From Patella caerulea (lineage: Eukaryota), in NCBI GenBank assembly GCA_036850965.1, contig JAZGQO010000011.1, forward strand, positions 61,687,281 to 61,751,280: a DNA stretch of 64,000 bases, given 5' to 3'. The stretch's first letter is position 1. Each line of letters opens with the position of its first letter. Below the pieces are notes generated by a model. That model made no database searches, was not told the DNA's origin, and worked only from the letters and a program-made list of their open reading frames with translations. Position numbers and translations under genes: made by a program. Shown here one piece after another: positions 6,850-63,459 of the stretch.

Positions 6850-7110
6850 AAATACTCTATTGCTTGTACGTGTACCACTCGCCTGCTCTGCCATTGAGTC
6901 AACTGGCGTGGTTTAGAATCCCCGGTTGTACGTGGCAAGGATTAGGGTCGCCTGTCCAACCTCGTGGGTTTTCTCCGGGTACTCCGGTTTCCTCCCACTG
7001 CTAAAGACCCCTACGCGCAAGCGAATAGTTGAAATGAAATTAATCCATATCATATTTTAGCCCCGAAATGAGACCTAATAATTTGTGTCAAGTGGACGTT
7101 AAACCTCATG
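6850..7110 (+). mobile_element. SINE family A, subtype A2. It has an alternative tRNA-like head (...gagtcaactggcgtggtttagaatccccggttgtacgtggcaagg...) on the same body and tail.
   Basis: The body and tail (caacctcgtgggttttctccgggtactccggtttcctcccactgctaaagacccctacgcgcaagcgaat...gtggacgttaaacc) are shared with A1. The head matches the copies at 47490-47770 and, in reverse, at 20235-20470, 40340-40598 and 37078-37325. Confidence 0.7.
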
Positions 7111-8560: not shown

Positions 8561-8848
8561 GGGGGTTGGGATGGCCTAGTGGTTTAGAGTGCCGCGCTTC
8601 AACCTCTAGCTGGCCGGTCACCTCTGGCTTGCGGCTGTGGTTTTGAGCCCTGGTGTCAGCGTATGTGGCATGGAGATAGGGGCGCCTTCTCAACCTCGTG
8701 GGTTTCCTCCGGGCACTCCGGTTTACTCCCACTGCTAAAGACCCTACGCGCAAGCGAATTATTGAAATAAAATTAAACCATATGTTAGTCCCGAAATGAT
8801 CTAGTTTGTGTTGAGTGGACGTTAAACTCCATTTCTCTCTCTCTCGCT
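8561..8848 (+). mobile_element. SINE A1, full length, with a target-site duplication.
   Basis: The flanks are ...gctctattataa|GGGGGG... and ...ctctctcgctctattatag. An 11-bp direct repeat gctctattata brackets the element. ORF 8496..8753(-) is an artefact. Confidence 0.85.
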
Positions 8849-9507
8849 CTATTATAGATCACTTGTAATTTTATTCACGAATCTTCTCATAATTTTATGA
8901 GAAGCATCTTTATGCGTGAAGCGCTGCCTTGCATAATTTTCCAGCGTGGTTTCCCCACCTTGAGCGTCTGACAAGGAACAAAGTGTATTCGTGCAGATGG
9001 TACGAAAACCAAGGCCCGTTGGTGTACACGACAAATAACCCGCGGCCGTTGGAATTCGGTGAACTTAAAGTAAGTGTACAAGTAAAAGTTAGAAATCGAC
9101 TTCGTGCAAAATTCTACACAAGCTGCATAGTGTACGCCCCTCTTCTTTTCCTTGATTTATGCAGAAAAGTAGGACGTTAAACCCCATTTCATTTCATTTC
9201 TTATAATTGATTATTGCCTCGTTTTACACCATTATTAAATGTTGAAATGTTTATCTATTTATATTTTTGTTGAAAGTTAATCTGAAAATTAAATAAAGGC
9301 TTGTTTCACCTAATCAATAAACTATGTGTAATGATATTTTAATTATTATTAATTTTTTTTTACCTGAAACTAAATTATCAATTTGTGTAACATCAAACAC
9401 ACGTTTTCACCTGCATGATTATTTATATATTGATGTAGACAAAAACATTAATGAGTTTATATAACAGATGAACTCCTGCGACATCGAAATGCGATAAAAT
9501 TAAATTG

Positions 9508-9630: not shown

Positions 9631-9644
9631 TGAGAGAGAGAGAG

Positions 9645-9800
9645 TGAGAGGGTGGGGTTTAACGTCCACTTGACATAAACTAGGTCATTTCGGGACTAAC
9701 ACATGATTCCACCTTATTGCAATAATTCGCTTGCGCGTAGGGGACTTTAAAAGTCTGTGGGGAAACCGGAAGACCCGGAGAAAACCCACGAGGTTGGATA
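9645..9800 (-). mobile_element. SINE A copy lacking the 5' head, in reverse orientation.
   Basis: On the + strand it reads gagggtggggtttaacgtccacttgacataaactaggtcatttcgggactaac...cgcttgcgcgtagggg...ggaaaccgga, which is the reverse complement of the A body and tail. Confidence 0.6.
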
Positions 9801-12459
9801 GCATCAAATTGCAACTGTCAAGGGTTCTGTTACGGTTATAACGACCAGCTTTATTTAATGAAATGGATAAAAAGAGAAGAAATGAAATAGGTTTCACGTT
9901 CCGCTTCCCCGAATAAACCTGGCTACTGTAGACGGATTAAATTTAATACGAAAAAAAAACCTTTGTATTTGTATAAAATTAATTTTTGATTGGTTGTCGA
10001 GTAAATAATCTTTATAATTTCTTTTTCTAGAAAAAAATATAAATTGATTGCGCGGTCTGATTTATCTCTACAGGGTCAGCACTTTATAAAATAAACCTGA
10101 GATAAAAGCCAGCTTAATTTCTTGTTATTTGTTAGCTTTAATCATATCGATTGTTGAATATTCATATTATTTTTTGCATATTCATATTACACGTAATTTT
10201 TAAATTCTAACAATTAAGAAATTCTAACTACTTAGGCTCATTATATTCAATCTTGCACATATCGCTATAGCGTTACCATATTAAACTTGGTTTGTCTGTC
10301 AACAGTTAGCCCCGCTTCAGAACAGACACTAAGCTAGTTGGCCGACATTTTAAGTTCTAAATCGACGATTTTAGTCAAAAACACTTAGTATATTTTGCGA
10401 ATTTTGTTGAGTATTTAATTTATTCTGATTCCATTTGTATATGTAATAAAATTGAATTATGACACGTGAAATGGAGTACACACGCATTATACAATAGTGT
10501 GACCATTTATTACGCTAGACAGATCTCTTTGTGCAGAATGTAGCATGATTTTGGTAGCCAGCTAATCCAAACAAAACGATAACAGTTGTTGCGGTTTTTT
10601 TTAGTATTATAGACATTTGTAGCCACGGATCAGATCCTGAACAAAGGCTACTTGAAATCATCAAAACACCTTCCCGAAAGACAAGCAAATCTCTTCTCAA
10701 AAATGAAAATACATTTTGAAAGCATGATTGACGCACATGTTCGTCCTTCTTCGTATGGCGAGAAAATGAAATATAGAATATCAAACGAAGCGACACAAAA
10801 ATCCGTTGAGAATAGAAAAAGGCATGTGGCTGTGTTTTTAAACAATGACTGACAACTACATTCGCCATGTTGATATGGTCAATTACAAAATATAACTTTG
10901 ATAAGAAACGAAACGACAAGTAAATCCGGTTAATGATATTCAATCTGGTTGGGAGTATTAGTCCGCGATACTTGAACCGATGCTAATCACAACCTCAGAT
11001 ATTTAACAAAAGCTCATTGCTGATCCGGGGGAAGTAACTCGTTCTTTATTTACCTTGATCACCGGTCAACAACTGTCAAAATTAATCAAGGAGATAATGC
11101 CCGGTAATTAGAACTCTTTTTAAGTGAAGGTAATTTAAACGCGCTATTTGTCTGACGGCCATATTGGAAACTCATCAGACGTCGACTGAGCGAAAATTAA
11201 TCAATGGCGGAGTTATTTCGTTCCGTTTATTTGACTCGGAAAAGAAAACATGCTTAAAGGTTGAACGTGTTTGATGGATCGACTTTGATATCCAATCAAC
11301 GATGACAAATTAGTGCGCGCTAATTAACTCCTCTTTTTGTCTTTTAAGATGAGTTGTCGCTATGTATTGGTTGTTGATAAGTGGAAACATTTGGTTGCTG
11401 TTAGCGTTTAGTTGTAAACAACTGCCAGATTTCCTTTACCACCCGGGATCGTTTTGACTGGGGAATTAAACTATTATAACTGGACATGACTATAATATAT
11501 TTATGTGTTCATGATTGTTAGAAAGGGGGTTGGGGACTCCCAGTGCCGACCTGATAATATTTCGGTAGGACGGAGGGCCTATCAAGGGATGAAATGCCGA
11601 GGTCCCGTTTACACATTGGCGTGCTCTTAACTATAAATAAGGAAGCGAAATAGGATTCGTTTTTTACTCAAATTGGGTAATTCACATAGCTTAAACCGTT
11701 TGGTTGGAATTTAATATCGTAATATTCAATAAAATATTTTGCCATTTTTTCATGAACATTTGATACCACCTCCCATTCATTTGGGAAGCTTGAATAGCTA
11801 ACGACTTTTGTCATCTTGCTTTCTAACACATAACAACAATAAATTAAGTTGTGCTTGAGGTAGAATGTGTTTATTTTCAAGAACGTTCGATATTTCACAT
11901 AGCCAACAATTGTATCTAATAATTTGACTCTGTCGTATAGGTACGTGTTTGTTTATTTATCTGAAGATATAAACCCATTTCGAACTCCAACGATTCCAAA
12001 CTTCTCCCTCTAGTTTATTTACTCTATTAAAGTAGCCGACTCGAACAACCCACAATCGACACGGGTATTTCACTACTGTTAGGTTTCTCGCTTCCACGAG
12101 TCCAGATTTTTACTGAACCCTAACGAAGTTGTCATTTTCCATTTTTCATAGTTTAGTAAATAAATATGGCTGACTGTTAGTAATGTTATCTCTCTGACTT
12201 CATCAGTTACAACCGGATTGTACTCGTGCGAGGTGGAAATACAAAATGTTAAAAATGTCCCAGAAATCTGGAAGCAAACATCTGGTAGGGGCCGATTGGG
12301 TACAGATTCCTCCTGAGTTTGACAGACTGGCTGTCAGTCCATGGTTAAACAGACGACATGCTACCACAACCATTTATTGTAAACATGCCCGTTAAACACT
12401 TTTAAGACTCAACTTGTAAACAGTCTTCGTGCAGCGGGCAATCGTGTGATGCAAATGTA

Positions 12460-36640: not shown

Positions 36641-36920
36641 GGGGGGGGGGGCTAGTGGTCTAGAGTGCCGCGCTTCGACCTCTAGCTGGCCGGTCACCTC
36701 TGGCTTGCGGCTGTGGTTTGGAGCCCTGGTGTGAGCGTATGTGGCATGGAGATAGGGGCGCCTTCTCAACCTCGTGGGTTTCCTCCGGGCTCTCCGGATT
36801 CCTCCCACTGCTATAGACCCCTACGCGCAAGTGAATTATTGAAATAAAATGAAACCATGTCTCAAAATGACCTAGTTTGTGTCGAGTGGACGTTAAACCC
36901 CATTTCTATCTCTCTCTCTC
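36641..36920 (+). mobile_element. SINE A1, full length, with an 11-bp target-site duplication.
   Basis: tttcggtgattgga|GGGGGGGGGGGCTAGTGG...ccatttctatctctctctct|cggtgattgga. The direct repeat cggtgattgga lies on both flanks. ORF 36605..36808(-) is an artefact. Confidence 0.85.
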
Positions 36921-37077
36921 GGTGATTGGAAACTACAATATTGTGAAAGATGAATCTCTGTAAGGATTATCATTCGATAGATGCTTTCATTCCATTATGG
37001 GCAAAGTTATGATGAACTGAAAAATTTCGCATCATTGTCATTCTCTGGATATAGTCTAAACAAGTTTGGAGAGAGAG

Positions 37078-37325
37078 ATAGAGAGAAATGGGGTTTAACG
37101 TCCACACAAATTAGGTCATTTCGGGACTAACATGGTTAATTTTATTTCAATAATTTGCTTGCGCGTAGGGGTCTTTAGCAGTGGGAGGAAACCGGAGTAC
37201 CCGGTTGAACAGGCGACCCTACTCCTTGCCACGTACACCCGGGGATTTGAAACCACGCCAGCTGACACAATGGCAGGCTGTATGATATTGCGCGCGCACG
37301 CTAACCATTCGGCCACCCACTCCCA
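37078..37325 (-). mobile_element. SINE A2, reverse orientation.
   Basis: agagaaatggggtttaacgtccacacaaattaggtcatttcgggactaac...cacccggggatttgaaaccacgccagctgacacaatggcaggc...ctaaccattcggccaccc. Confidence 0.7.
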
Positions 37326-37337
37326 AACAAAATTGGG

Positions 37338-37450
37338 GGAGAGAGAAATGGGGTTTAACGTCCACTCAACACAAACTAGGTCATTTCGGGACTAACGTAT
37401 GGTTTAATTTTATTTCAATAATTCGCTTGCGCGTAGGGGTCTTTAGCAGT

Positions 37451-37481
<31 letters not shown>

Positions 37482-37616
37482 ACGAGGTTGAGAAGGCGCC
37501 CCTATCTCCATGTCACAAACGTTCACATCAGGGCTCGAAACCACAGCCGCAAGCCAGAGGTGACCGGCCAGCTAGAGGTCAAAGCGCGCCACTGTAGACC
37601 ACTAGGCCATCCCCCT
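37338..37616 (-). mobile_element. SINE A1, reverse orientation. It forms an inverted repeat with the 36641-36920 copy.
   Basis: It is the reverse complement of the A1 consensus through ...ctagaggtcaaagcgcgccactgtagaccactaggccatccccc. ORF 37449..37634(+) is an artefact. Confidence 0.8.
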
Positions 37617-40339: not shown

Positions 40340-40598
40340 ATGTGAGAGAGATAGGTTAAAGTCCACTCGACACAAACCAGGTCATTTCGTGACTAGTATA
40401 TGGTTCAATTGCATTTCAATCAATCGCTTGCGTGTTGGGCCTTTACCATAGGGAGCAAACCGGAGGACACGGAGAAAACCGACGAGTTGGACAGGCGACT
40501 CCGCTCCTTGTCACGTACAAGCAGTGAAGCGAAACCGCGCCAACTGACTCGATGAGAGGTCTTATGATGCAACGCGCGTTAACCATTCGGCCACCCAA
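40340..40598 (-). mobile_element. SINE A2, reverse orientation.
   Basis: gagagataggttaaagtccactcgacacaaaccaggtcatttcgtgactag...caagcagtgaagcgaaaccgcgccaactgactcgatgagaggtc...gttaaccattcggccaccc. Confidence 0.7.
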
Positions 40599-45729: not shown

Positions 45730-45895
45730 TGCCCGTCCAACCGCGTGGGTTTTCTTCCGGTTCTCTTGTTTCTTCCCACTGCTAAAGACCCCGACGCACA
45801 AGCGAATTATTGAAATAAAATGGAACCATATGTAAGTCTCGAAATGACCTAGTTTGTGTCGAGTGGTTGTTAAATCCTATTCTCTCGTTTCAATT
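45730..45895 (+). mobile_element. SINE A copy truncated at the 5' end.
   Basis: ccaaccgcgtgggttttcttccggttctcttgtttcttcccactgctaaagaccccgacgcacaagcgaattattgaaataaaatggaacc...gtcgagtggttgttaaatcc. It abuts a SINE-B copy at 45335-45555. ORF 45397..45813(+) is an artefact. Confidence 0.6.
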
Positions 45896-47489: not shown

Positions 47490-47770
47490 GAAATTGCATG
47501 GCCGAATCGTTAGCACATGTGCGTTGTATCATAAGGTCTGTTATTCGATCAACTGGCGTGGTTTCGATTCCCAGGTTGTATGTGACAAGAGTAGGGTCGC
47601 CTCTCCAATCTCGTGGGTTTTCTCGCCCCCCCCCCGGTTTCCTCCCACCGCTAAAGACCCCTACGCGCAAGCGAATTATTGAAATAAAAATTGAATCATA
47701 TGTTAGTCTCGAAATGACCTAGTTTGTGTCGAGTGGACGTTAAACCTCATTTCTCTCTCGCTCTCCATTC
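47490..47770 (+). mobile_element. SINE A2, full length.
   Basis: Head ...tggccgaatcgttagcacatgtgcgttgtatcataaggtctgttattcgatcaactggcgtggtttcgattcccaggttgtatgtgacaag.... Body and tail ...gtcgagtggacgttaaacctcatttctctctcgctctcc. ORFs 47416..47670(-), 47441..47722(+) and 47494..47682(+) are artefacts. Confidence 0.75.
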
Positions 47771-50500: not shown

Positions 50501-53257
50501 AATATACCTCGCTCACAGAATACCTTCAAAACTTAAATTGAAAATAATATTAAAAAATTGGTTTCAAACGTGTATGTTATCAACCACAATATATATATAT
50601 ACGGCTAAACAATTAAAGGAAATAATTCTATACAAAATAACTATAAAAGTATCAAAGTTATAATATATCCCTTTTGTAATGACTTTGTTCCTAAGTCTAA
50701 CAAATATGACTTTCAAGTCCGTAATTCAAGGGGAACAACTCCTTTTAAGTGAGTCAATTTCTTTCGGGATCACCTCGTCATTGGCGCTAACAGTCGGTTC
50801 ATGTGCATTTGGTGTGTGGTGCGGTCCTCCTTCACTTTCTATAAAGAAAGTATTTTTTAAAGGGCAACTGATCCATGAAATTCAAAATAGCGCAAAATAA
50901 AACAAAATCAATAGAATATGATACAGAAAAATTCAGTAGCATGAAAATATAGATACACATTATAAAAAGCATTCTGACCGTCCTGACTGGACTACGTGAT
51001 TTTTGGGTGTGGTCTAAAAACTGCCTTCTTAAATAAGGATAAGAATTATGTCCCTTTATTTTCGGTAAAAATGTCCGACAAGAAAAAATTTGAATCCCCA
51101 TCACTGGTCAATACCTTTGGTAAACATGAATATATAGCTGTTATATTACGACTAAACAAAAGGGTAGGACAAGGGGTATGAAAAGCTGCACCAATTACCA
51201 TTAATAAAATAATATATCAAAAATACTGAAATATATTAAAATACCAATTTGTACAAAAAAAATATAGTAAGGGATTCAAAGTTACTCCCCTTATCAACAA
51301 TCAACAGTAAGGGATTCAAAGTTACTCCCCTTATCCACAATCAGACATTAAAGTATGCAAGTACAATCATAATATTTTATGAAAGAATGTACACACTGAA
51401 AATATACAAAATGAATATATAAATGTCAATTATATCCCTTTAGTTAAAACAATATGTTTCTATAACAATATTGTTTTAAATATAAAAATACCGAACCGCT
51501 CCAGGTCTTTGCACCGAGTTAAAGGGCAATTTTGGTGCCATTATCACATATGTCATAGAGCCCATTGCTATGTTTTCTATTTTGTGTGTCACTTCCGTTT
51601 TTCTTTCAAATCATAGTTATACATCTATCGTATCAATGATCTATGTGTTAAAAATACATTTGGAATGTGTTTAACCAATTCTATCACATATGAAATAATG
51701 GCTGACACCAGTATTGCCCTTTCAACAGTTCTATCACATTTATGATAATGGCTGGCACTAATATTGTCCGTTAAAACGGGCTATATTATGGCTATCTACA
51801 AACTTATTGAATCTTACAAATCACCACTTTTCCCAAATATAAGATATCTTAGATGTTTTTTTAAAAATTCATTTTCATACTAAACACTTAGTTTTATTAA
51901 AAGCTGAATAATGACAACAAATTATTCTGGCCAGCTTATATTACCTGCCATTTAAAAAAACCAAAAACCAAACAATAATAGCCCACATAGTTATCCATAT
52001 TAAGACTACAAGAGTTATCTCCGCTGTATATTTATAATCAGAACATGCGCATTAGGCAAGCTGTTCGTCATGTATTTTATACAGTACTATTTATGATGAA
52101 CTCTGTTTATTTTTAGTGAAGCCTGTACCATGACAGGCCCGGGACTGTAGAGCGCAGTGGACGCTTACGGCTGGCCCCCGGATCCATTCACTTGATTTGA
52201 TATTTTCCGCAGGTTAATCTTATAGGTTTTTGTTTTTCGTGTAGTGTGGCCCTCCTGCACTTAGTATTATAGTTAAAGATGTATCAGACTGAAACTGAAG
52301 ATCGTACTACATCTACTGTAATTTTGGATGTCACCGTAACCCGAAATGCAATTACATTAAACATTTTTTTAATGAAATGTCGCTACTGTGGCCTTAGACC
52401 TGACCAGAAACGGAAATAAAAATTACATTCCACAAAAGGAAGGTCTCTAATTAAAGTAAATTATCAAAAATATCTTCCTTTCAAAAGTTATATAGGGGGA
52501 GATAAGTCCGATGTCAACAGTTTAACTTCAACACTGCTGGCGATCAAAATCCCCGAAGGACTTACTTATATTGCAGTCCATTATCAAATTGAAGTCCATT
52601 ATCAAATTGAAGTTCAGTATAAATTATCAAAAAAGTATTTTCCTTTCAATATACAACCCACACAAGGTGAAATAGTCCTTTTTCAACAGTTTAACTTAAA
52701 CACTGTTTAGGATCAAAATCCGGGAAGAACTGTTGAATAGACTCAGCATTAAGTTCAATGACGTGATTAACATCTGTATCTGTACAGTGTTGATGATAAT
52801 TAGCGTAAATATTGTCAGTTAAACACATTATACCATTTAACAGATGCCTGCAAAACAAAACAACAGAGAATCAATCGGAGATATTTGGGGGAATGGGGAC
52901 CGTCGTAAAATTCCGTCCAAACGAATATCCTGAGTGAGGGGGTTGAACGACATCGTGGATAGAAAATGATAAATCATTTAAAAGGTCGGTTCCTTAGTCT
53001 TTAACCCGCATCAAAATCCAGCTCTGTCAACATGTTATTACCCTGTCGGTGCGGGTAGGCTGGTGGGTAGCGATCTATCGCGGGTTCTGCGTATGGACGA
53101 AAGTGTTGACATTTTGTGACCCCCCCCCCCTTAAGATAAATATTGTTGATTTTGCCCCGAATCCCTTGTCAAGAATTGTTGAAGTCTGGAATATACATGG
53201 TCGTATATCATGGCGTCCTCATAATTGCCATATGAGATGCAGAGAGAGTGAATGTGG

Positions 53258-53475
53258 TGTAACGCCCACTCGACGTAAACTAGGTCATTTCGTTAAATTG
53301 TAATTGTATTTCAATAATTCGCTTGCGCATAAGGTAGTGGGAGGTAACCGGAAGATCAAGAGAAAACCCGCGAAATTGGGCATGCGGCCCTACTCCTTGT
53401 CACGTACAACCGGAGAATCGAAACCACGCCAGTGACAAACCTTATGACACAGCTCGCACCAGCTAACCATTGAGT
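53258..53475 (-). mobile_element. SINE A2, reverse orientation.
   Basis: gtgtaacgcccactcgacgtaaactaggtcatttcg...caataattcgcttgcgcataagg...caaccggagaatcgaaaccacgccagtgacaaaccttatgacacagc. ORF 53049..53303(+) runs into it. Confidence 0.65.
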
Positions 53476-54405
53476 CATATATCCATGCAACACGAAAAGG
53501 AAGCTAAATATACCTTAATTGATGAACACCAATAGTAATAAACTTTTAGTAATATTTTTGTTGTATATGTATTTGACATAAAATATGGGGTCTATTTTGT
53601 GGGTTATGGTTCAATCTTACGATTCTAAATCTCTGAATGAAAAAAACCCACATGTTGTGCCCAACCGCCTCAAGGCTTAAGCACATGTTGATTTTACCTG
53701 GTGATTAAACAAGGGCTGAGAAAAACACTTAACCAGAATGTCCCACACCCACGTATTTATACTTACATGCATCTTGCTTTATTATTTTGTGTTCTCATAA
53801 TTTCCATGAAGAACGGTCGACAACTCGTCAAATACTGGAGAACGACAGCGTTATCTCGACATGGATTATAAACAACAGTAGAGTCTGAAAAAAGATGACA
53901 TAAATAATATTTTGTTTAGACACATACTGACCATAGCATGCTTACTTTCACAAGGGCAGTTGATCTTGGACATTTTTTGTAAGGTTCGGCATTCGGAACT
54001 GGCTTCTGGCGCTCAGCTGAGTGCTGTGAAAATTTTTCGGATAATTAAACCATCAACAAACCAAGACAAAAGTATTGATATCATTCAATCGTTCACTATA
54101 TCAACAGTTGCTGGGGCCACTGTACTAGAAGACGTTTAGATTATGAATGAAAAAATGGTAGTGGAAGTAGGTTTAAGTTTTATGGGAGGTGGAAGATGCT
54201 GGCAGAACGGAAGGAGTAGCTGATTTAACGACGCCATCTTCATTTGTGTATTATCGTCTGAACGAACGACCACATATATCTATCCACAAAAAAATGGGCA
54301 CCAAGAATATATCTGACGCATGTTATTGTTTTAATCTTCTAAATTAACACCACAAAACACCTTTTAAAGAAATATATAAGGAGCAAAACGGTCATTGACA
54401 CTTAC

Positions 54406-57405
54406 CTGTTGAGTTTGAAAGAGAAGCTGAAGGTTCATCTGCAGTTGTATTGGTATTGTTTGCACTGGTTTGAAGAATATCTGTGAATCCAGATCTATCG
54501 GCGTCTCTGGCATTATTGTCGATTTCTGCATCCGTCTGATTTGACAATGATCCTCGAGTTAACCGTGGAATCTCAGACTCATTCCAATTGCTGGTTGTAT
54601 TTAAGGATAAAGCAGGAGTCGATACGATAAACGACGAATCCTTTGATTTTAAATCAGTAGCTTCCTGGGAGTCGTTTATGGGAAGAAGAAGCTTGTTATT
54701 GGTGGATGTAAAATTTTGATCCGGCTTCACACGAGTGCCGTTTACGTCTGTGTTGATTGACAATGAAGGAACAATAGAATGAACAATAGGGTCAACCAGC
54801 TTGCTTTCATTGACGTTCGGCTTCAGAGAATCCTCTTGTGTGTTGTTAGGTCCTTTAAATGTATTGTTTACCACACTATTGAATTGAGCGTGGCTCATAT
54901 TCGAAGGATGAAGCCCGTGCATTAAATGATCTTTCTTATGCGCCTCGTCCTTGACCTTGATGACATGGGTTATTATACCTGGCTTGTGTACAAGAGGTGG
55001 GGGAGTGGCGATCTGCTTTCCACTTTTGGCAAAAGAATCTCTAGTCTCGGGAGCAACTACATCTGTGTGGTAAGCAGGAACATTGTCGCCAAGCATGGTA
55101 GATGGTGGTGGAAGAGGCATGTTGTTAGAGGGTCCCAACTCGGACTCGTGTTTCTCCGGATGAATGACATTCCTCGCCTGATGAAACTCTTTCCAGGACG
55201 CGGTGCCAGAAGCAGGTGGGTAGGGCATGAAATTAGACGGACCCAACCCAGAATTACCCCCAGTAGGATTCCCAGTCAAATCGGTTTGAATATCTCCTTC
55301 TCTTTCCCGGAGCTCCTTCATGTGACGCCCTTTATCAACTGGATCTTTCTTTGTTGGGGAATTTTGATCAGCAGGGGAATCACCCGAGTCTATGAATGGA
55401 GTATGACTGCCCCCCGCTGCTGCTGAAAGTTGCGGTTGGGTGGCCTTAGACATACTTTGTGCAATGTGGGCTATTTCTCTAGAGAGCATTTGTTGAAAAT
55501 GATGATCATTTAGATCTGGTTTGTATCTTTTGTGGGGTTGTTCAAAACGAGGGATGGAAAGGCCGGGAATAATAGCGTTATTGATTACATCACTGGAACT
55601 GATAGAAGACTTGTTCTTCTTGGATATATCGCTGGTATCTTGCGGCATGTCGTGAAATCTCTGGGGATGGATCCCATATTCCTCTTGATTTAGCTCATGC
55701 GTCAAATCATGTAACAAATCATGCTCCTCAATTTGATGATTTTCATGGCGTTCTTCCTCGACTTCGTCCCTATCTCGTCTATCCGGGTTTCCTCTTTGAG
55801 CGTCTGATACAAGTGCTGGACTGTCGACAAGGTTATTAATAGAGTTTTCATTATGCATAATTCCATCTGGATGGTAGGACTTGGTATGTTCTCCTTGTTC
55901 TTCAGTGTATGAATCTCCCAAATGGTCGTACTCCCCCGTAAAATGATTTACTGAAAGTGGTCGTTCCGGTTGTAGTTTATCTGCCACTTCTCCCGAACCC
56001 ATATCCCCGTCTTCGTCTCTAAGGATGCTGGTTTGTGTAGTGAACACCATGCTGAATGGCGTTTCAGGATAATGAAATCTTCGAAATTCCTGGGATCGCC
56101 TATGATAGGATTGATTATGCGATGAATATCCCCCTTCTGAATTCTCCCCGTCTACATAATCATGATTGACATGATTATTTCCACTATCGGTATGGAGTTC
56201 GATGGAACTATGGGGATCATAGTCCTCATAGGAATCGGGATCCTGCTCGGGGTCCGGACCATGATCAAAAATATTCATCCCATGGTGGTCTTTCGGTTGA
56301 CTTCCTGGAACATGATTGTATTCAGGGGCTTTCCAAATATCAGCATCTCCATCAAAATCTTCGAAATGCTTTGAGTGATAATCTCCTGTATGATGTTGTT
56401 GTTGAAAATCTTCAGATGAACTTGAATACGTTTCATGTGGTGGAATTGCATTATCACTGTCTTCAAAATCTTCTTTATCGGGAAAATGAAATGTATTCTC
56501 TTCTTTCAAGGTAATATTTCGTGGGTCCGGATCATCCGCTGAAAAGTCTGTAGCTCCAAATGAATTAAGCACTGGCGTCTCCAGGGCATCCGTATCATTT
56601 AAGTTTATTATTCGATCGGGAAAGTCTAACCGACCATCGAAAGCTGAAGAGTTGCCCAAAGATCCAGGAGCGGTATCATCTGCAACCCAAAGCGACGTTT
56701 CATTAGATAAATTTTGAACATTGAACATGTCGGTATCGTGATTGTGGACATTACCGTGATCGTCTTCATGGTCATATGTCTGGTTCATGGGATAAATTGG
56801 TGGAATGGTGTCAAAGGGCGATTCTTCGAATGATGCAGTATTCGCTACTGTTGAAGTTGGTACTTCTGTAGAGACAGTGACCGGTTGTGATATCGAACTT
56901 GTAAACGTTGTATTTATAGAGGGTTTAACTGGATTTAAATTTGTTTGCGGAATTTCCTCCCCAATGGGGGTAGGTGTAGATATAGGAGCGTGGGTAGATG
57001 ATGCACTACTGTCCGTTGCTGTAGAAGCTGCAAAAAATGACACCGTACTGGCGCCGGAAAACGCAGTACTGTTGGTATCTACAGTCGTGGTATTATATGA
57101 CGACGTTACTGTGGTTGATGCCACAGTAACGCTCGTTGCTGCAGTAGTTGTAGTAAATGATGCTTTTTTTGTAGATGAAAACGCTGTGGTTGACTCAGTG
57201 GTTGGCGAAGTGGCTGATGCAGGGTTCTGGGTGGCGGGGGATGTTGAGAGAGTAGGCGGAGTACCTGAAGATGGCAGAGTGACTGTGGTGGAAGATCGTG
57301 TTTCTGTTGTAAATGAAGGTAAAGCTATTGGTTCTGTGATAGTAGGAACAACTTCAGTTGGTATAGTTACAGACTTGGGAATATATTTAGTTCTTATTTT
57401 TGTTC
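54406..57405 (-). CDS. Large internal exon of about 3.0 kb from a gene encoding a cysteine-free, probably secreted, intrinsically disordered protein. The N-terminal part is Ser/Thr/Pro-rich and mucin-like. It is followed by a long acidic His/Asp/Glu/Tyr-rich region with many N-x-S/T sequons.
   Basis: The 910-aa ORF 54392..57124(-) stays open upstream past its first Met as far as a strong minus-strand acceptor, ttctttcctttgttccag|GAACAAAAATAAG. The AG sits at 57407-57406 and the intron is phase 1. The exon ends at a classic donor CAACAG|GTAAGTGTC, with the exon ending at 54406 and the donor phase 2. The terminal ...GKCQ* of the ORF is therefore intron read-through. Composition: roughly 200 aa of TTVTSSYNTTTVDTNSTAFSGASTVS-type low-complexity sequence. 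After that come stretches such as DHEDDHGNVHNHDTD and DHHGMNIFDHGPDPEQDPDSYEDYDPH. There are internal repeats (GLGPSNFMPYPPA / ELGPSNNMPLPPP) and a single Cys in about 1000 residues. The plus-strand ORFs 56805..57431 and 54926..55426 are its antisense shadows. Confidence 0.75.
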
Positions 57406-58326
57406 CTGGAACAAAGGAAAGAATGTATTAAATATAACAATAACTAACAATTGAGGATTCAAAACATCTATATTTAAGCGATAAACACTTCCTGTTTCGC
57501 ATTTAGAGGAGTGTTATTGTCCAATAGACATGTCCTGGGATCATTAGGACCCGAGACGCGTATCGACATTGTAACATGCTTTTTTACGATTTTAAAAGAC
57601 ATTACTAAAACAGAAGGGTGTTATTATCCAATAGACAGTGTCTAATTAACCAATCAAAACGCAAGGTTTACCCTGAAGCATGTTACAATGGTTAATTCCG
57701 CGTATCAATGGTGTTCTCATCAGGATTGTCTGGAAGCCAATTACTACCATCTTCGTGTTGTATACATGACGTATTCATCGATCACGAAACAACGTTGAAA
57801 TATCACCAGCACATGCGCGAACTTATTACGTTCACACAGGCCAAATTGACAACGCACACAAGCCAAATGAACAGCAACCATTCGCGAAATCTTATTGTCC
57901 ACTCTTACTTTGACTAGTTGTATACGGAGCCGCGCATTTTGTCCCGCGAACTTTTCCCGTTACTGACATTAGGGGGAATGGTTTTATATAGGCTAAGATT
58001 GTTCCCAAATCCCACTCAATTATCCTGAATAAATTATTGTTTAAACACAAATCAAATTGATCTGACATTTGTTTTAAATTGGTTATATTTAAGCTCCTGT
58101 GCTGATGGATTGTGTCGGTGACCTTTGACGCCTAGCTTATATCTACAAACCTGATGACACCGATTCTTGGTATCAAAGTCCAGAACCTCGCTTCCCTTGG
58201 TTATAAGTATGGCGGGTGCCGTGGACGAAAGCAGTGTATTATGGCAAAGCTTTCTAGAAATCTGATACCAATTCTCACTCGATTACTTCACATTGTTAAT
58301 AATTCTTAGTCTGGCTTTAAACTCAC

Positions 58327-58526
58327 CTTCTTCGTGTGAATCTTTGATCTGCAAACTTTTAAAATCAAAAACTATTTTAGACGCCGGCATATCGTTAGCC
58401 TTCAGCTTTTTAATCATCCGTTTCCTTTTGCCCAAACCTTCTAACATCATTCCCGCCAAAATGTCAGACGTCAAGCCTCGTCTTGAGTTTAACAGGATGA
58501 TGAAATCAACAACCACACTTCCAGGA
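58327..58526 (-). CDS. Candidate 200-bp upstream exon of the same minus-strand gene.
   Basis: The minus-strand frame is open across the segment. It is flanked by the acceptor ttgtttttacctag|TCCTGG (AG at 58528-58527) and the donor GAAG|GTGAGT (GT at 58326-58325). It encodes ...SPGSVVVDFIILLNSRRGLTSDILAGMMLEGLGKRKRMIKKLKANDMPASKIVFDFKSLQIKDSHEE. The donor leaves one nucleotide (phase 1), which matches the phase-1 acceptor of the big exon at 57406. The junction codon is g|ga = Gly. Confidence 0.45.
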
Positions 58527-59339
58527 CTAGGTAAAAACAACGAGAAAGATAGATTAGTTATATTTACTTGCCGGCTTCAAAAGTGGGGACAGGGGGCGGT
58601 ACCACACAAAAACAACAAGACAGGACATACAAAAACACGGTCATTGTAAGCAATAAAAATGACATAATATCAAATCAACTGAAGGGTTCCGGCGTTGTGT
58701 AAAAAAATAAGGTTTTTTTTTTTTAATCCATTGATATTTTTTTTTATATTGTTTTCTATAATTAAATGTTACATACTGAATTTGACTACATAATAGAGTT
58801 GATTAAGCCGTGAAAAATTTGATATTTAACGAAAGATGACACACAGAGACTCTAACAAGTAAATTGTCAGAGGTTTGGGAGTGTATAATATTTGCAAAAT
58901 CGCTGATCTTTTTTTTTATTCCCGAGGCAAAATGTGCAAATCATGACCAGCATCTTCAAAATTAGAGACAGTTTTACCTTAAATCTATGACGACTGTGTG
59001 ATTATATCTGTCCATAAGAGGTCCAAGTTCAAATACCTGATTTAACTATAAAATAGAATATAACATAAAAATATCATATCATATGCAATGAGTAAATTGA
59101 CACGTTTATGTTAAGGTACCAAAGGGCGGAACTTCAACTTTACAGGACCAAAAACCGTCGTACACCCATGACATTTGAAAATGCCGCTGTCGTGAAAAAA
59201 TTCCCAACCACACAATACACACGGAACCATATAGATTAAAATTACTATACATTTTTCCGGAGGCGTGTAGAGGTTTGGTGCTGCCCGGGAGCAACTCCTA
59301 CATTGTGCGCCCCAAACATTAAGTATAGGGCAGTGTACT

Positions 59340-59535
59340 CAGAAACAGGCGCGTGCCCCCTCTTTTATTTAGGTGGCGAACAATTTTTAGCTCCATATAT
59401 TACAATACTAGTATGAAATTAGTCCTTGTGCGCATTTTTTCAACTCAAAAATCACGGGCCGGGCTTCGCACACCCAAGTGGGTGCAGCACGCTCCCTCTC
59501 CCCCTTTCTGAAAATCCCGGATCCGCCCCTGAGAA
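59340..59535. repeat. Dispersed repeat family Y, copy 3, with an internal deletion.
   Basis: gcgcgtgccccctcttttatttaggtggcgaacaatttttagctccatatattacaatactagtatgaaattagtccttgtgcgcatttttt...ccccctttctgaaaatcccggatccgcccctgag. Confidence 0.5.
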
Positions 59536-61429
59536 ATGTGGTAATGGAAGGCGTTTCAAATATGTCAAAATAAACCAAGCATGGTAATTACCTCCCGTTC
59601 AATATGTTTTGATACAACTCTGTATAATTCACCAGCGTGGTTGCCTAAATCATTCGTCCATTTTAAACTCGTTATTCGGATTATGCCCTCAAAATCTACC
59701 GCTGTAACATAAAACAATAATAACTACAAAATCGTCGACAATACTGGTAGTAATAATTAATGTTCATTTTTCAGAAGTCCCCAACTCCACGAAAATGGAC
59801 TCTTTAACGCTTGATAAAAATATCTACATTAAGAGTGTTTAGCTCCCTGGTAGAACTTGATTGACACAAATTAGTTTTAAATGTTTCTGCAGTGATGATA
59901 AGGACGTGCAATGACAAAGGCTAGAATAAAGGCTGACAGGCAGTTAAGTCCACCTTTTATGAGCAGCTATTGGAAATAAACTGTAACGTTTACTTCATAT
60001 AACCCGGGCCTTTCAAAGGTTTAAAATGTGGAGGGCTAGATACTTTTACCCTACCGCCTCCTTTCCAACACTAGTAACATAAACATCACTCAGTCTGCTT
60101 ATATATGTTCTGGTGACATTGACCCATAGACTTATAGGCCTTTGGTTGACGCGATGGCTGCACCTCCCTCTCGTTAGGCATGCCTATAACTCGGAACGTT
60201 AATATGATTATGAGGTTTCAATCAAAGATGTTTTGATGGAATGTCAGAGTGAAAAAGTTGACAAAGATATCTACGGATGGGTATAGTCAAGGCAAATTAG
60301 GCAAATGAGCCAGACAGCCAATGGAGATATTTTATAACCGAAGTGATTTGGTAAATCAAGGAACATAACTCGACTATAGCTATTTACCTTCCTAATCAAA
60401 AATAAAAATATTGAATCCCTCGGATAGGATCAATATATTTGCTAAACGAGGTTATCTGGTGTTATGATGTTGGAACTTTGTTTCAGATGGGAAATGGCGT
60501 AACCCGGTAGGGTGGGGTGAGTAGGGTTTGATCACAAGTGCTCCATGCATCTGGGTAACACTTGCAAACTACGTTCTTTGTACTACATCACTGTCCCACC
60601 AACTCGTCTAATTAGTTATCATTTAGGCCAAGCCAATTTAATCTTTAGTTCTTCGAGATCTTGATAAACCACTTAGTCACGTGAAAAATATTGTAAGCCT
60701 AGGTCACAATCAGTCTACGGGGGAAATTTGAGCAACCCTGTGTGACACTTGCTTGCGTGTGTTCGATCATTAGATGATGGTAGACTGGCCGAGTTTTTGT
60801 CTGCACATACAAAATTTTCACCCGGTTTCTTGCGGCTGGTCTGCGAGCTATCAAACCCTTCGATCCGTGTGTCACAGATCACGTACGCGTGTTGTGGGCC
60901 AGGCGTTATTTAGAATTTCCCAAAACTTGAAAATGTGGAACTTAAATCTTCTGAGAAAAGCAACCAAGTATTTTTTAGACTATTGTTCTTACATAATAGG
61001 TGTTCTCGAAGAAACAAAAGTTCAATTTGATGTGGCCTTATTCTGAGTTTGCTACATAGGTTTGTTATAGTATAGGCTACTCACTTTGGACCTCGCTTGC
61101 AACATATTCTGATGACGTATCGACTGACGTACTTCCTGCAGGGACATGAACACCTTTCTTTACTGTAAATAGAATTCCATGTTAAATCGTGGACATACTT
61201 TTTGCATATACGCATTATAGCTAGCTCTCCTAATTAGCGTTTGACAGATGTTTAAGGCTTCGTTGTATGGCGGATTAATTTACATTTTTCGTCAAAGACC
61301 AAAGAGAGTTCACGTTAGTAGAACTGAACGTTTCAGCATTTATCGACGCAGTTTAAATTTTACAGGACGGAGATTCCGTGGAATTGTAAGATTAGGTTTC
61401 TTGCAGTTGATGACACTAGTAGTTTGCGT

Positions 61430-61760
61430 TGTTAGCATTTGACACTTTAGATTTTTAAAATTATTTGCATTTGACGTTATTAGCATTTTGATATAGACGG
61501 TTAGTTATTTGCATTTTACGTTATTAGCAGTTGACGTAGATGGTTAGTTATTTTGATTTGATGTAGATAGTTATTTGTATTTGACTTTATTAGCATTTGA
61601 CGTAGATGGTTAGTAACTTCCGTTTGACGTTATTAGGATTTAACATAGATGGCTAGTTACTTGCACATGAGGTTACTAGCATTTGATGTTATATACCATG
61701 AATTTACTAGGAATTGACGTTATTAGCATTGGCCGATATAAATAGTTCCTAGCATTTGAC
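61430..61760. repeat. Minisatellite with a unit of about 40 bp, ttagcatttgacgtagatggttagttatttgcatttgacgttat.
   Basis: About 8 units have alternating catttgacgt(t/a) submotifs. ORF 61248..61442(+) abuts it. Confidence 0.7.
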
Positions 61761-61779
61761 GTTAGGTATAGTGCCTGAA

Positions 61780-62050
61780 TAATGTATAATAAACAGGGCT
61801 ATTAGGGTAGAATATCCGAATAATGTATGATAAATAGAACTACAAAGATAGAATACCTGAATAATGTATGATAAATTGAGCTATAAAGATATAATATCTG
61901 AATAATGTGTGATAAATAGAGCTATAAAGAAAGAATACCCGAATAATGTATTATAAATAGAGCTATAAGGAAAGGTATTTTATCTGAACAATGTATGATA
62001 AATACTATAACGACATATATAATTACCTGAGTAATGTATGATAAATCCCA
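61780..62050. repeat. Minisatellite with a unit of about 41 bp, ctgaataatgtatgataaatagagctataaagatagaata.
   Basis: There are 6-7 units, directly adjacent to the previous array but with an unrelated unit. Confidence 0.7.
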
Positions 62051-63216
62051 GTGCTATTGATATGACAATTATCACCACAGCTAATGCTATTAAACCAATA
62101 CAAAATTTAGATCGCGGTCGTCTATAAACACTTGTAGAACTTGATACTGGAATATATAAAACGATGAATCAGTTCCGGCCTTATATTGACGTAGAAACCT
62201 TGTGGTTGCAACTTATCTTGGGAGATCTTAAAAGAAAATCACTTTCAGTTGGCCCTTAACACTGCCCATTCAAATGACTACTTATTGACTATCTGCTAAA
62301 CTAAAATGGCTAGCACGGACAATTTGACTTGTTTTTGTTTGATTGGGGGCGGTGGTGGTGGAGGTGGGGGTACAGTATGTCCTCTATTGGCACTCTCCCA
62401 AACAGAGTTGCCATCTCTTTCAGTTCACACTAACTAGATAACCAGAATGACTTAGTGGCAGCATATATGGTTATTATTATGACGTCATATTTTATGTGCT
62501 TTAGACTGAGAGGCGGTCATGACACGTAATAATGATAATAATGGATCGCTATAAAAGAGTGTTACATTACAGAAATTATGATAGGAGGCCGACGATTGTT
62601 TAATAAAGATTACGGCTTAGATTAAAGATGCATAATGTAGGAGCTAAAAATATGCCTATTAGGCCTACACATCTTTTGGCATCAAATATTACATAGATAA
62701 TTACTTAAACGTGCATACACACGACAATTTAATCCATTAATTGACTCTCTGAGATTAGAACACCGCAGCTCTTTAAGAGTTGAACGATAAAATAGATACA
62801 TGTAATCAAGTCTTAGTTTCGGTTGTCAAGTACCCTTGCCAGGTTAATGAATAACCAATGTTGTTTTTTTGTCAAAATTTCAAACCTTCATAACTTCACA
62901 CAAGATAAAGTCATTTTTACTGAAATTTTTAATATATTCATTTTTCATTATGTATCTTTAAACTTTTATAGCAAGAGCGACCAGGTCTAAATTTTACATA
63001 ATGCATCTTTAAGTTGTATGTAATACTTTTGGGCGCTGGTTTCAAACGTGACATAATTCTAGTTGCCTAGTTACCAATAATGTTTATGTGTGCTTTAGTC
63101 CGAATACATTCCTACTCCAGTCTTAAACAAGCTTAAAACAAAACTGGGAGAAAATCTACACAAATTCTTAAATAAATCAATTTGAACACCACGCTATCCC
63201 CATTTTATTTACAAAC

Positions 63217-63459
63217 CCGAATATTTAGTTCCCGAACTTTCTGACGGAAGATAAGGACGGGATTTAAAACCTGTCACGTGATTCGGGTTGTCATAGACGA
63301 CGAAACCATATTCCATAGAGTCGACGTTACCAAGGGTACTTGACGTCATGTGATCACTTGACCCCGACCCAGGGCCAAGCTGGGTCATGTGAAACATCAC
63401 GTGGCTATCCAGGATGGCGGCATAATTTAACACCGGTAACTTTCCATTTCTTGCTGTCA
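63217..63459 (-). CDS. Candidate 243-bp symmetric (phase-1/phase-1) coding exon on the minus strand. Its product is unidentified and has no Cys.
   Basis: A strong acceptor tttttttttcttttccag|TGACAGC (AG at 63461-63460) opens an 81-codon frame: .TARNGKLPVLNYAAILDSHVMFHMTQLGPGSGSSDHMTSSTLGNVDSMEYGFVVYDNPNHVTGFKSRPYLPSESSGTKYSG. A possible donor G|GTTTGT lies at 63216-63215. The donor choice is uncertain. The phase does not join directly to the 58526 exon, so intervening exons or a separate gene are implied. Confidence 0.3.

Follow-up and report, generated by a model that had tools for sequence, protein, structure and literature searches.

A 3000-nucleotide exon of the limpet Patella caerulea belongs to a gene for a predicted SEA-tethered, mucin-like surface glycoprotein

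What kind of protein is specified by an exon of about 3 kb whose translation had been likened to no domain family? The question is raised by the minus strand of a 64,000-nucleotide (nt) stretch of the Patella caerulea genome (GenBank assembly GCA_036850965.1, contig JAZGQO010000011.1, positions 61,687,281 to 61,751,280), here called the window. A reading made from the letters alone, referred to below as the sequence-only reading, had proposed an orphan gene for a cysteine-free, disordered, secreted protein that might bind metals or minerals. The exon is the seventh of nine in a minus-strand gene (coding sequence 63388..52691) that is real and already annotated, and not yet characterised. The gene is best classed with the SEA-tethered, mucin-like surface glycoproteins, as a variant whose architecture is new and includes an undescribed 6-Cys helical domain, and it is not a new kind of system.

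Gene structure and conservation

Used as a protein query, the translation of exon 7 matched SNE40_017849 (GenBank, 1322 amino acids (aa)) at 100% identity and full coverage, and it also matched LOC126815847 of Patella vulgata (83% identity). Threading SNE40_017849 onto the window gave nine GT-AG coding exons that translate exactly to it. The entry is annotated only as a hypothetical protein and carries a precomputed Pfam SEA label; the published P. caerulea annotation was made with BRAKER and RNA-seq of pooled head, foot/mantle and viscera (PMC11003540). The exon bounds predicted in the sequence-only reading (57405..54406) proved exact, with an acceptor ttcctttgttccag| (AG at 57407-57406) and a donor CAACAG|gtaagt (GT at 54405-54404), both on the minus strand. 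The same holds for the predicted in-frame joining to a 200-bp exon, which is exon 6. Its 3' end, AAGAAG|gtgagt, leaves one nucleotide over for the phase-1 acceptor of exon 7, so that the junction reads ...DSHEE-G-TKIRTKY..., identically in the deposited protein models of P. caerulea and P. vulgata. The gene continues past 54406, as had been foreseen, with exons 8 and 9 downstream. The end of the open frame (GKCQ and a stop) was rightly taken for intron read-through, and the single Cys that had been counted in about 1000 residues sits there; exon 7 has none.

Exon 1 has three alternative phase-1 donors, at 63331, 63271 and 63217, with the sequences GTACCCTTG|GTAACG, GTGACAG|GTTTTA and ATATTCGG|GTTTGT. 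These correspond to P. vulgata isoforms X3, X2 and X1 and add or remove Tyr-motif segments of the cytoplasmic tail (YGFV, YDNP; PYLP...KYS); exon 7 is constant across all isoforms. The P. vulgata models start from an in-frame ATG three codons upstream of the annotated start (63397-63395, MFHM...). Judging by a polypyrimidine-AG acceptor at 63461-63460, the exon with this ATG may begin at 63459, with one or more exons of the 5' untranslated region further upstream. A fourth predicted isoform of P. vulgata, X4 (1169 aa), begins with MERYNH inside the SEA domain, without the tail, the transmembrane (TM) helix and the first SEA half. X4 would be non-functional as a membrane protein and is therefore probably an annotation by-product or an internal-promoter transcript.

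A separate observation concerns intron 2. At the exon 2 donor (62027), about six to seven tandem copies of a 41-bp unit (61774-62046) duplicate the terminal ~20 nt of exon 2 and, with them, the donor ATTTATCATACATTACTCAG|GTAATT. One of the copies in the intron keeps a donor-like CAG|GTATTC at ~61857/61856, which could be a cryptic donor.

Between P. caerulea and P. vulgata, the ratio of non-synonymous to synonymous substitution rates (dN/dS) was 0.04 in the SEA domain, 0.08 in the tail and TM helix, 0.31 in the C-terminal domain and 0.36 in exon 7 (dS 0.21); within exon 7 it was 0.47 in the first part and 0.37 in the second, acidic part. Exon 7 measures 3000 nt in P. caerulea and 2997 nt in P. 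vulgata, with all indels in-frame. The other exons are of equal size in the two species, bar three extra in-frame codons (MFH) at the start of the P. vulgata model. Because of its dN/dS and the restriction of its indels to in-frame ones, exon 7 is constrained coding sequence, less constrained than the folded parts, and the gene as such evolves under purifying selection. The chance of a stop-free run of 1011 codons at the local base composition is ~7e-32.

Beyond Patella, XP_067656306.1 of the abalone Haliotis asinina (1629 aa) is a 1:1 orthologue, with nine exons of identical phases (0,1,1,1,0,2,1,1,2) and homologous junctions. The two proteins align over TM helix and SEA domain (30% identity, E=8e-22) and over the C-terminal domain (36% identity, E=6e-19); the middle stalk is unalignable. 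The Haliotis SEA domain scores 29.6 bits against Pfam and has GSIVA at the position aligned to GSVVV of the limpet. Its exon 7 is 3849 nt long, and the encoded stalk, 283 aa longer than that of Patella, contains no Cys in 1281 aa, has a net charge of -91 and 26 N-glycosylation sequons, and places a block rich in Pro, Thr and Ser (PTS) before an acidic His-rich patch. Both LOC126815847 and XP_067656306.1 are true orthologues, sharing the order TM-SEA-stalk-6-Cys, the nine exons with their phases and a Cys-free acidic stalk. The automatic name of the Haliotis protein, 'serine-rich adhesin for platelets-like', stems from the similarity of low-complexity sequence and does not assign a function.

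The lineages of limpets and abalone split several hundred million years ago. From limpet to abalone, stalk length, composition and gene structure are kept, and stalk sequence is not. In the protein search, homologues of the exon 7 sequence were found only within Patella; the gene is not an orphan, having a 1:1 orthologue with identical exon structure. The compositional bias, the loss of which in related species had been named as evidence against the sequence-only reading, persists in the Haliotis stalk.

Architecture of the predicted protein

The sole hydrophobic segment of the 1322-aa protein is a 23-residue anchor at aa 56-78, preceded by RRPRSK, with a peak Kyte-Doolittle 19-residue mean of 3.29 at aa 58. 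No N-terminal signal peptide was seen by hydropathy, the first 55 aa being hydrophilic, and hydropathy over the whole protein revealed no C-terminal TM segment. Secretion, as had been proposed, is thus not what the sequence predicts: a signal anchor after RRPRSK points to a type II single-pass membrane protein with an N-terminal cytoplasmic tail of about 55 aa. Release could occur only through cleavage of the SEA domain and shedding.

The SEA domain spans aa 108-180, where Pfam PF01390 scores 45.3 bits, above its cut-off of 26.4 (E=1e-11). This match appears only after exons 4-6 are joined, and the SEA half-exon alone gives no Pfam match. The 200-bp exon of the sequence-only reading encodes the second SEA half, including GSVVV at aa 166-170 within PGSVVVDF. 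Both GSVVV and the GSIVA of Haliotis fit the published autoproteolytic site of SEA domains, G|S(V/I)V(V/A), which lies in the beta2-beta3 loop (PMC6954182, PMC2958558). In an AlphaFold2 model of low confidence (predicted local distance difference test (pLDDT) 57), the domain shows beta-alpha-beta-beta-alpha, in the order of the ferredoxin-like SEA fold (beta-alpha-beta-beta-alpha-beta), and GSVVV falls between the predicted strands E52-60 and E67-78, that is, in the beta2-beta3 hairpin loop. A Foldseek search with this low-confidence model returned MUC16 SEA domains as the most probable matches (probability 0.98-0.99, E ~0.02).

Exon 7 encodes about 1000 aa without a Cys: 209 aa of PTS region are followed by 460 aa that are acidic and His-rich and by 331 sequon-rich aa. 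The first part (aa 232-440) contains 17% Ser, 25% Thr and 11% Pro (Ser+Thr 42%; Ser+Thr+Pro 53%) and coincides with the mucin-like start of about 200 aa that had been described. In the second part (aa 441-900), Asp reaches 12.2%, Glu 8.3%, His 8.3% and Tyr 3.3%, the net charge is -63, and low hydropathy together with high net charge places the region on the disordered side of the charge-hydropathy plot, in agreement with the disorder that had been read from its composition. The third part (aa 901-1231) is rich in Asn, Ser, Thr and Pro and has a net charge of only -11. The strongly acidic stretch of the sequence-only reading, put at about 750 aa, is therefore real as an acidic His/Asp/Glu-rich region but measures only about 460 aa.

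The sequons (N-x-S/T), announced as more than 20, number 24 in exon 7, compared with 14.5 +/- 3.3 in shuffled sequences; 6 of 2000 shuffles reach 24. The internal repeat that had been noticed is present as the motif pair GLGPSNFMP / LGPSNNMP (55249-55223 and 55138-55115), and a similar motif, GLDPSDLMP, occurs at the collinear Haliotis position. Tandem Repeats Finder detected no significant array in exon 7, only trivial arrays of 2-3 copies scoring <=46, and self-similarity tests on the exon were negative. A Pfam scan of exon 7 alone retrieved no domain. A DNA_ligase_IV match in the exon scans was below threshold and was judged spurious. The exon 7 segment is predicted to be extracellular; it is mucin-like, acidic and His/Asp-rich, and probably heavily glycosylated.

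Two open reading frames run antisense inside exon 7, at 54926-55426 (+, 166 aa) and 56805-57431 (+, 208 aa). They are low-complexity, Val/Gly/Asp-rich mirror frames of the coding strand and almost certainly not genes.

The whole protein is not, as had been claimed, cysteine-free, because exons 8 and 9 encode a C-terminal domain of 91 aa with six Cys; the protein has 7 Cys in total. The domain is all-helical and conserved: across six copies, taken from three molluscs, all six Cys and one Asp are invariant, and the AlphaFold2 model is all-alpha and confident (pLDDT 88.6). Each copy was scanned against Pfam with nothing credible found, no fold match was obtained in the PDB, and a PDB sequence search with the domain detected no relative. 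An exhaustive phmmer (HMMER) search with the 91 aa gave five hits, among them XP_067656306.1 of H. asinina (E=9e-12) and XP_022290496.1 of the oyster Crassostrea virginica. Two of the five were translated repeats and were rejected as spurious. With the 6-Cys alignment as its query, a profile search retrieved nothing but short fragments of oyster genomic sequence, which is taken as a limit of the word index, not as absence. Likewise, a word-indexed protein search with the N-terminal 244 aa gave no match, not even to its own entry, and does not indicate absence.

XP_022290496.1 (LOC111102138) resembles the limpet protein in its 6-Cys domain, PTS linkers and SEA domain. It differs in having at least three tandem 6-Cys copies N-terminal to the SEA domain, a WAP end and no long acidic stalk, and its SEA match (20.8 bits) is below the Pfam cut-off of 26.4. 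The N-terminus of this model looks truncated, since it starts inside a domain copy. Because the oyster copies are in tandem with PTS linkers, beside a weak SEA match and a WAP domain, the 6-Cys domain looks like a mobile extracellular module tied to SEA and PTS contexts in molluscs.

Proposed role, related systems and alternatives

The product of the gene is fairly probably a mucin-like surface glycoprotein of type II, tethered by its SEA domain and sheddable, with a 6-Cys helical domain. Such a protein would have a cytoplasmic tail of about 55 aa, its length varying through the alternative exon 1 donors. The SEA domain would self-cleave at G|S during folding, and membrane stub and ectodomain would stay non-covalently attached until force tears them apart and the ectodomain is shed. 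Densely O- and N-glycosylated and polyanionic, the stalk would form an extended, hydrated brush in a glycocalyx, a mucus interface or an apical matrix, and the helical Cys domain, kept by it at a distance from the membrane, would serve as a distal binding module. Stalk length and stalk composition, not the stalk sequence, would be under selection.

The closest parallels are with two groups of SEA proteins. An operational rule for candidate mucins combines a PTS domain, contained in one large exon, with a SEA domain (Lang et al., PMC1552070). Both are found in the limpet gene, whose PTS region (S+T 42%, P 11%) lies within a single 3000-nt exon, and by this rule it counts as a candidate mucin. 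With the vertebrate SEA-type TM mucins (MUC1, MUC3/12/17, MUC13 and MUC16) the protein shares a juxtamembrane SEA domain with G|SVVV, a long, Pro/Thr/Ser-rich, Cys-free and probably glycosylated stalk in one large exon, and a cytoplasmic tail that is short; the ectodomain, too, would be open to shedding. With the low-confidence SEA model, MUC16 SEA domains are the most probable structural matches. It differs in its additional 460-aa acidic His-rich region and distal 6-Cys domain and in lacking EGF modules.

Several points tell against the surface-mucin interpretation. With its N-terminal signal anchor the limpet protein has a predicted type II topology, whereas vertebrate SEA mucins are type I, and its PTS region lacks the tandem repeats of SEA-type mucins. 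Since it has no tandem repeats and its topology is reversed relative to all characterised SEA mucins, the analogy with them would be a functional one only, and family membership is not established. The topology itself was derived from hydropathy and the positive-inside rule, not from a dedicated predictor. It is the motif alone that suggests self-cleavage of the SEA domain, and the structural model of this domain is of low confidence (pLDDT 57).

The second group, the serine proteases of type II transmembrane topology (TTSPs), has the same N-terminal layout, in which a cytoplasmic tail and a signal anchor come before a SEA domain carrying a GSV(V/I)(V/A) site. The only SEA chain retrieved by the PDB sequence search was a TTSP SEA domain, 2e7v, at a non-significant E of 0.58, and the TTSP enteropeptidase also carries a mucin-like segment. 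However, Pfam searches over the 1322 aa found no protease, LDLa, CUB or SRCR domain, and the C-terminal effector is a disordered stalk of 1000 aa with a helical Cys domain of 91 aa. As a type II protein without a tandem-repeat PTS region and without a protease domain, the limpet protein belongs neither to the SEA mucins nor to the TTSPs.

The sequence-only reading favoured a secreted, acidic, metal- or mineral-binding matrix protein of shell, radula or adhesive mucus, chelating Ca2+, Zn2+ or Fe, and we consider this unlikely. The charge and His content of the 460-aa region fit such a role, as do the acidic His-rich patch kept in Haliotis and the SEA cleavage, which could free the ectodomain and make it effectively secreted. 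Limpets also make iron-mineralised teeth and Ca-dependent acidic mucus proteins, and the study of P. vulgata pedal mucus reports acidic or Ca-binding bands. Against it stand the lack of a signal peptide, the predicted membrane anchor and the behaviour of the His residues. These are not clustered (11 close pairs, 10.8 expected), are not enriched next to Asp or Glu (15 against 14.0 expected) and are no better conserved (0.84-0.87) than the average (0.84). Their spacing, adjacency and conservation do not differ from shuffled sequences or from the exon average, and no metal-coordinating motif emerged, either repeated or in clusters. If the acidic His-rich part binds cations, it would do so in a diffuse, electrostatic and not motif-based way.

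Nor did the literature lend this role specific support. In the text and supplement of the P. vulgata pedal-mucus proteome paper, no peptide or accession of the limpet protein and no mention of a SEA domain were found. The accessions of the gene are not mentioned in the searchable literature, including searches for Patella with SEA domain and for shell and mucus proteomes. The shell matrix of Lottia does contain a SEA protein, but one of another architecture, multi-SEA and chitin-binding. Metal or mineral binding is possible, and nothing yet ties the gene to biomineralisation.

The limpet protein resembles histidine-rich glycoprotein and acidic shell-matrix proteins in its acidic, His-enriched, Cys-poor and probably glycosylated composition. 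It differs from them in having no signal peptide, no repeated metal-binding motifs and no clustering of His. The Pfam and protein-search results contained no sequence relation to such acidic or His-rich extracellular proteins.

A role as a mechanosensory or signalling receptor, like MUC1 or yeast Msb2, is rather improbable. In such a receptor the SEA domain would be a force-sensitive switch, and the spliced, Tyr-containing tail would relay its state. The SEA domain with GSVVV does adjoin the membrane, and the literature ties cleaved SEA domains to force-dependent dissociation. The three exon 1 donors are conserved in both Patella species, with tail segments containing YGFV, YDNP and PYLP gained or lost. 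However, the tail is short, and only its juxtamembrane part is conserved between Patella and Haliotis, the alignment starting at aa 41. Pfam recognised no signalling domain, and after cleavage only an N-terminal stub would be left, without a known pathway.

That the exon is non-functional, as a transcribed pseudogene or a chance or repeat-derived low-complexity frame, is effectively refuted: exon 7 has neither a Pfam domain nor a sequence homologue outside Patella, and its low-complexity DNA also yields the long antisense frames, but its canonical splice sites within a nine-exon annotated protein, the structure and phases kept in Haliotis, the dN/dS with in-frame indels only, the improbability of so long an open frame and the window self-comparison, in which exon 7 is single-copy and not repeat-derived, all argue against such a frame.

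The SEA-tethered surface glycoprotein thus remains our preferred interpretation. It would bring the SEA-tethered mucin design to gastropods, in a membrane orientation opposite to that of the characterised, type I SEA mucins of vertebrates, and at the end of the stalk stands a Cys domain with a confident fold, for which neither Pfam has a family nor the PDB a fold relative. From limpet to abalone, the giant exon keeps its length, lack of Cys, charge and order of blocks though its sequence is unalignable, and the gene is therefore useful for the study of constraint on disordered regions. It is also a candidate for limpet surface, mucus or matrix biology.

A much bolder and quite unlikely proposal is that the gene and its Haliotis and Crassostrea relatives form a mollusc-wide, undescribed family built on a new extracellular 6-Cys domain of four to five helices, always found with SEA and PTS regions. 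In gastropods, a type II stalk, SEA-cleavable, polyanionic and His-rich, would carry this domain at its tip, and the ectodomain, once shed, would interact with cations or minerals as part of an extracellular material such as the iron-mineralised radula, the shell or adhesive mucus.

Exon coordinates and other features of the window

The exons of the gene and the copies of a dispersed repeat are listed in Table 1.

Table 1. Positions in the window of the coding exons and of copies of the ~270-bp dispersed repeat
Feature	Position	Strand	Length	Description
Exon 1	63271..63388	-	118 nt	Start codon and most of the predicted cytoplasmic tail, aa 1-39; from reconstruction of the coding sequence
Exon 2	62027..62146	-	120 nt	RRPRSK and predicted signal-anchor TM helix FCIGLIALAVVIIVISIALGFII (aa 54-79, 62105-62028)
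Exon 3	61085..61162	-	78 nt	Juxtamembrane linker; Haliotis counterpart 81 nt, same phase
Exon 4	59592..59701	-	110 nt	Start of SEA domain (beta1/alpha1); 110 nt also in P. vulgata and Haliotis
Exon 5	58978..59045	-	68 nt	SEA domain as far as the last residue ahead of the cleavage loop; also 68 nt in P. vulgata and Haliotis
Exon 6	58327..58526	-	200 nt	Second half of SEA domain; G|SVVV motif at 58522-58508
Exon 7, part 1	56780..57405	-		PTS mucin-like region, aa 232-440
Exon 7, part 2	55400..56779	-		Acidic His/Asp/Glu-rich region, aa 441-900, predicted disordered
Exon 7, part 3	54406..55399	-		Pro/Asn/Ser/Thr-rich region, aa 901-1231; 13 N-glycosylation sequons
Exon 8	53767..53884	-	118 nt	First half of C-terminal 6-Cys helical domain
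Exon 9	52691..52847	-	157 nt	Second half of 6-Cys domain, including TAA stop; 157 nt and same phase in all three species
Repeat copy	769-1046
Repeat copy	6888-7109
Repeat copy	8573-8849
Repeat copy	9633-9801
Repeat copy	36649-36920
Repeat copy	37071-37613
Repeat copy	40344-40554
Repeat copy	45735-45886
Repeat copy	47499-47765
Repeat copy	53241-53459			Intron 8

Scanning the window for tRNAs and Rfam families gave no hit. Positions 1-52000, outside the gene, look gene-poor and repeat-rich; neither convincing long open frames nor tRNAs nor Rfam RNAs were noted there, and a homology search of this part was not made. For about 17% of the window there is a match elsewhere within it. The dispersed repeat is SINE-like (short interspersed element) and about 270 bp long, and it occurs up to 14 times, on both strands, including the copies in Table 1. 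Nin-SINE/PcH-Sat elements have reportedly been described for Patella caerulea, and the repeat may be related to them.

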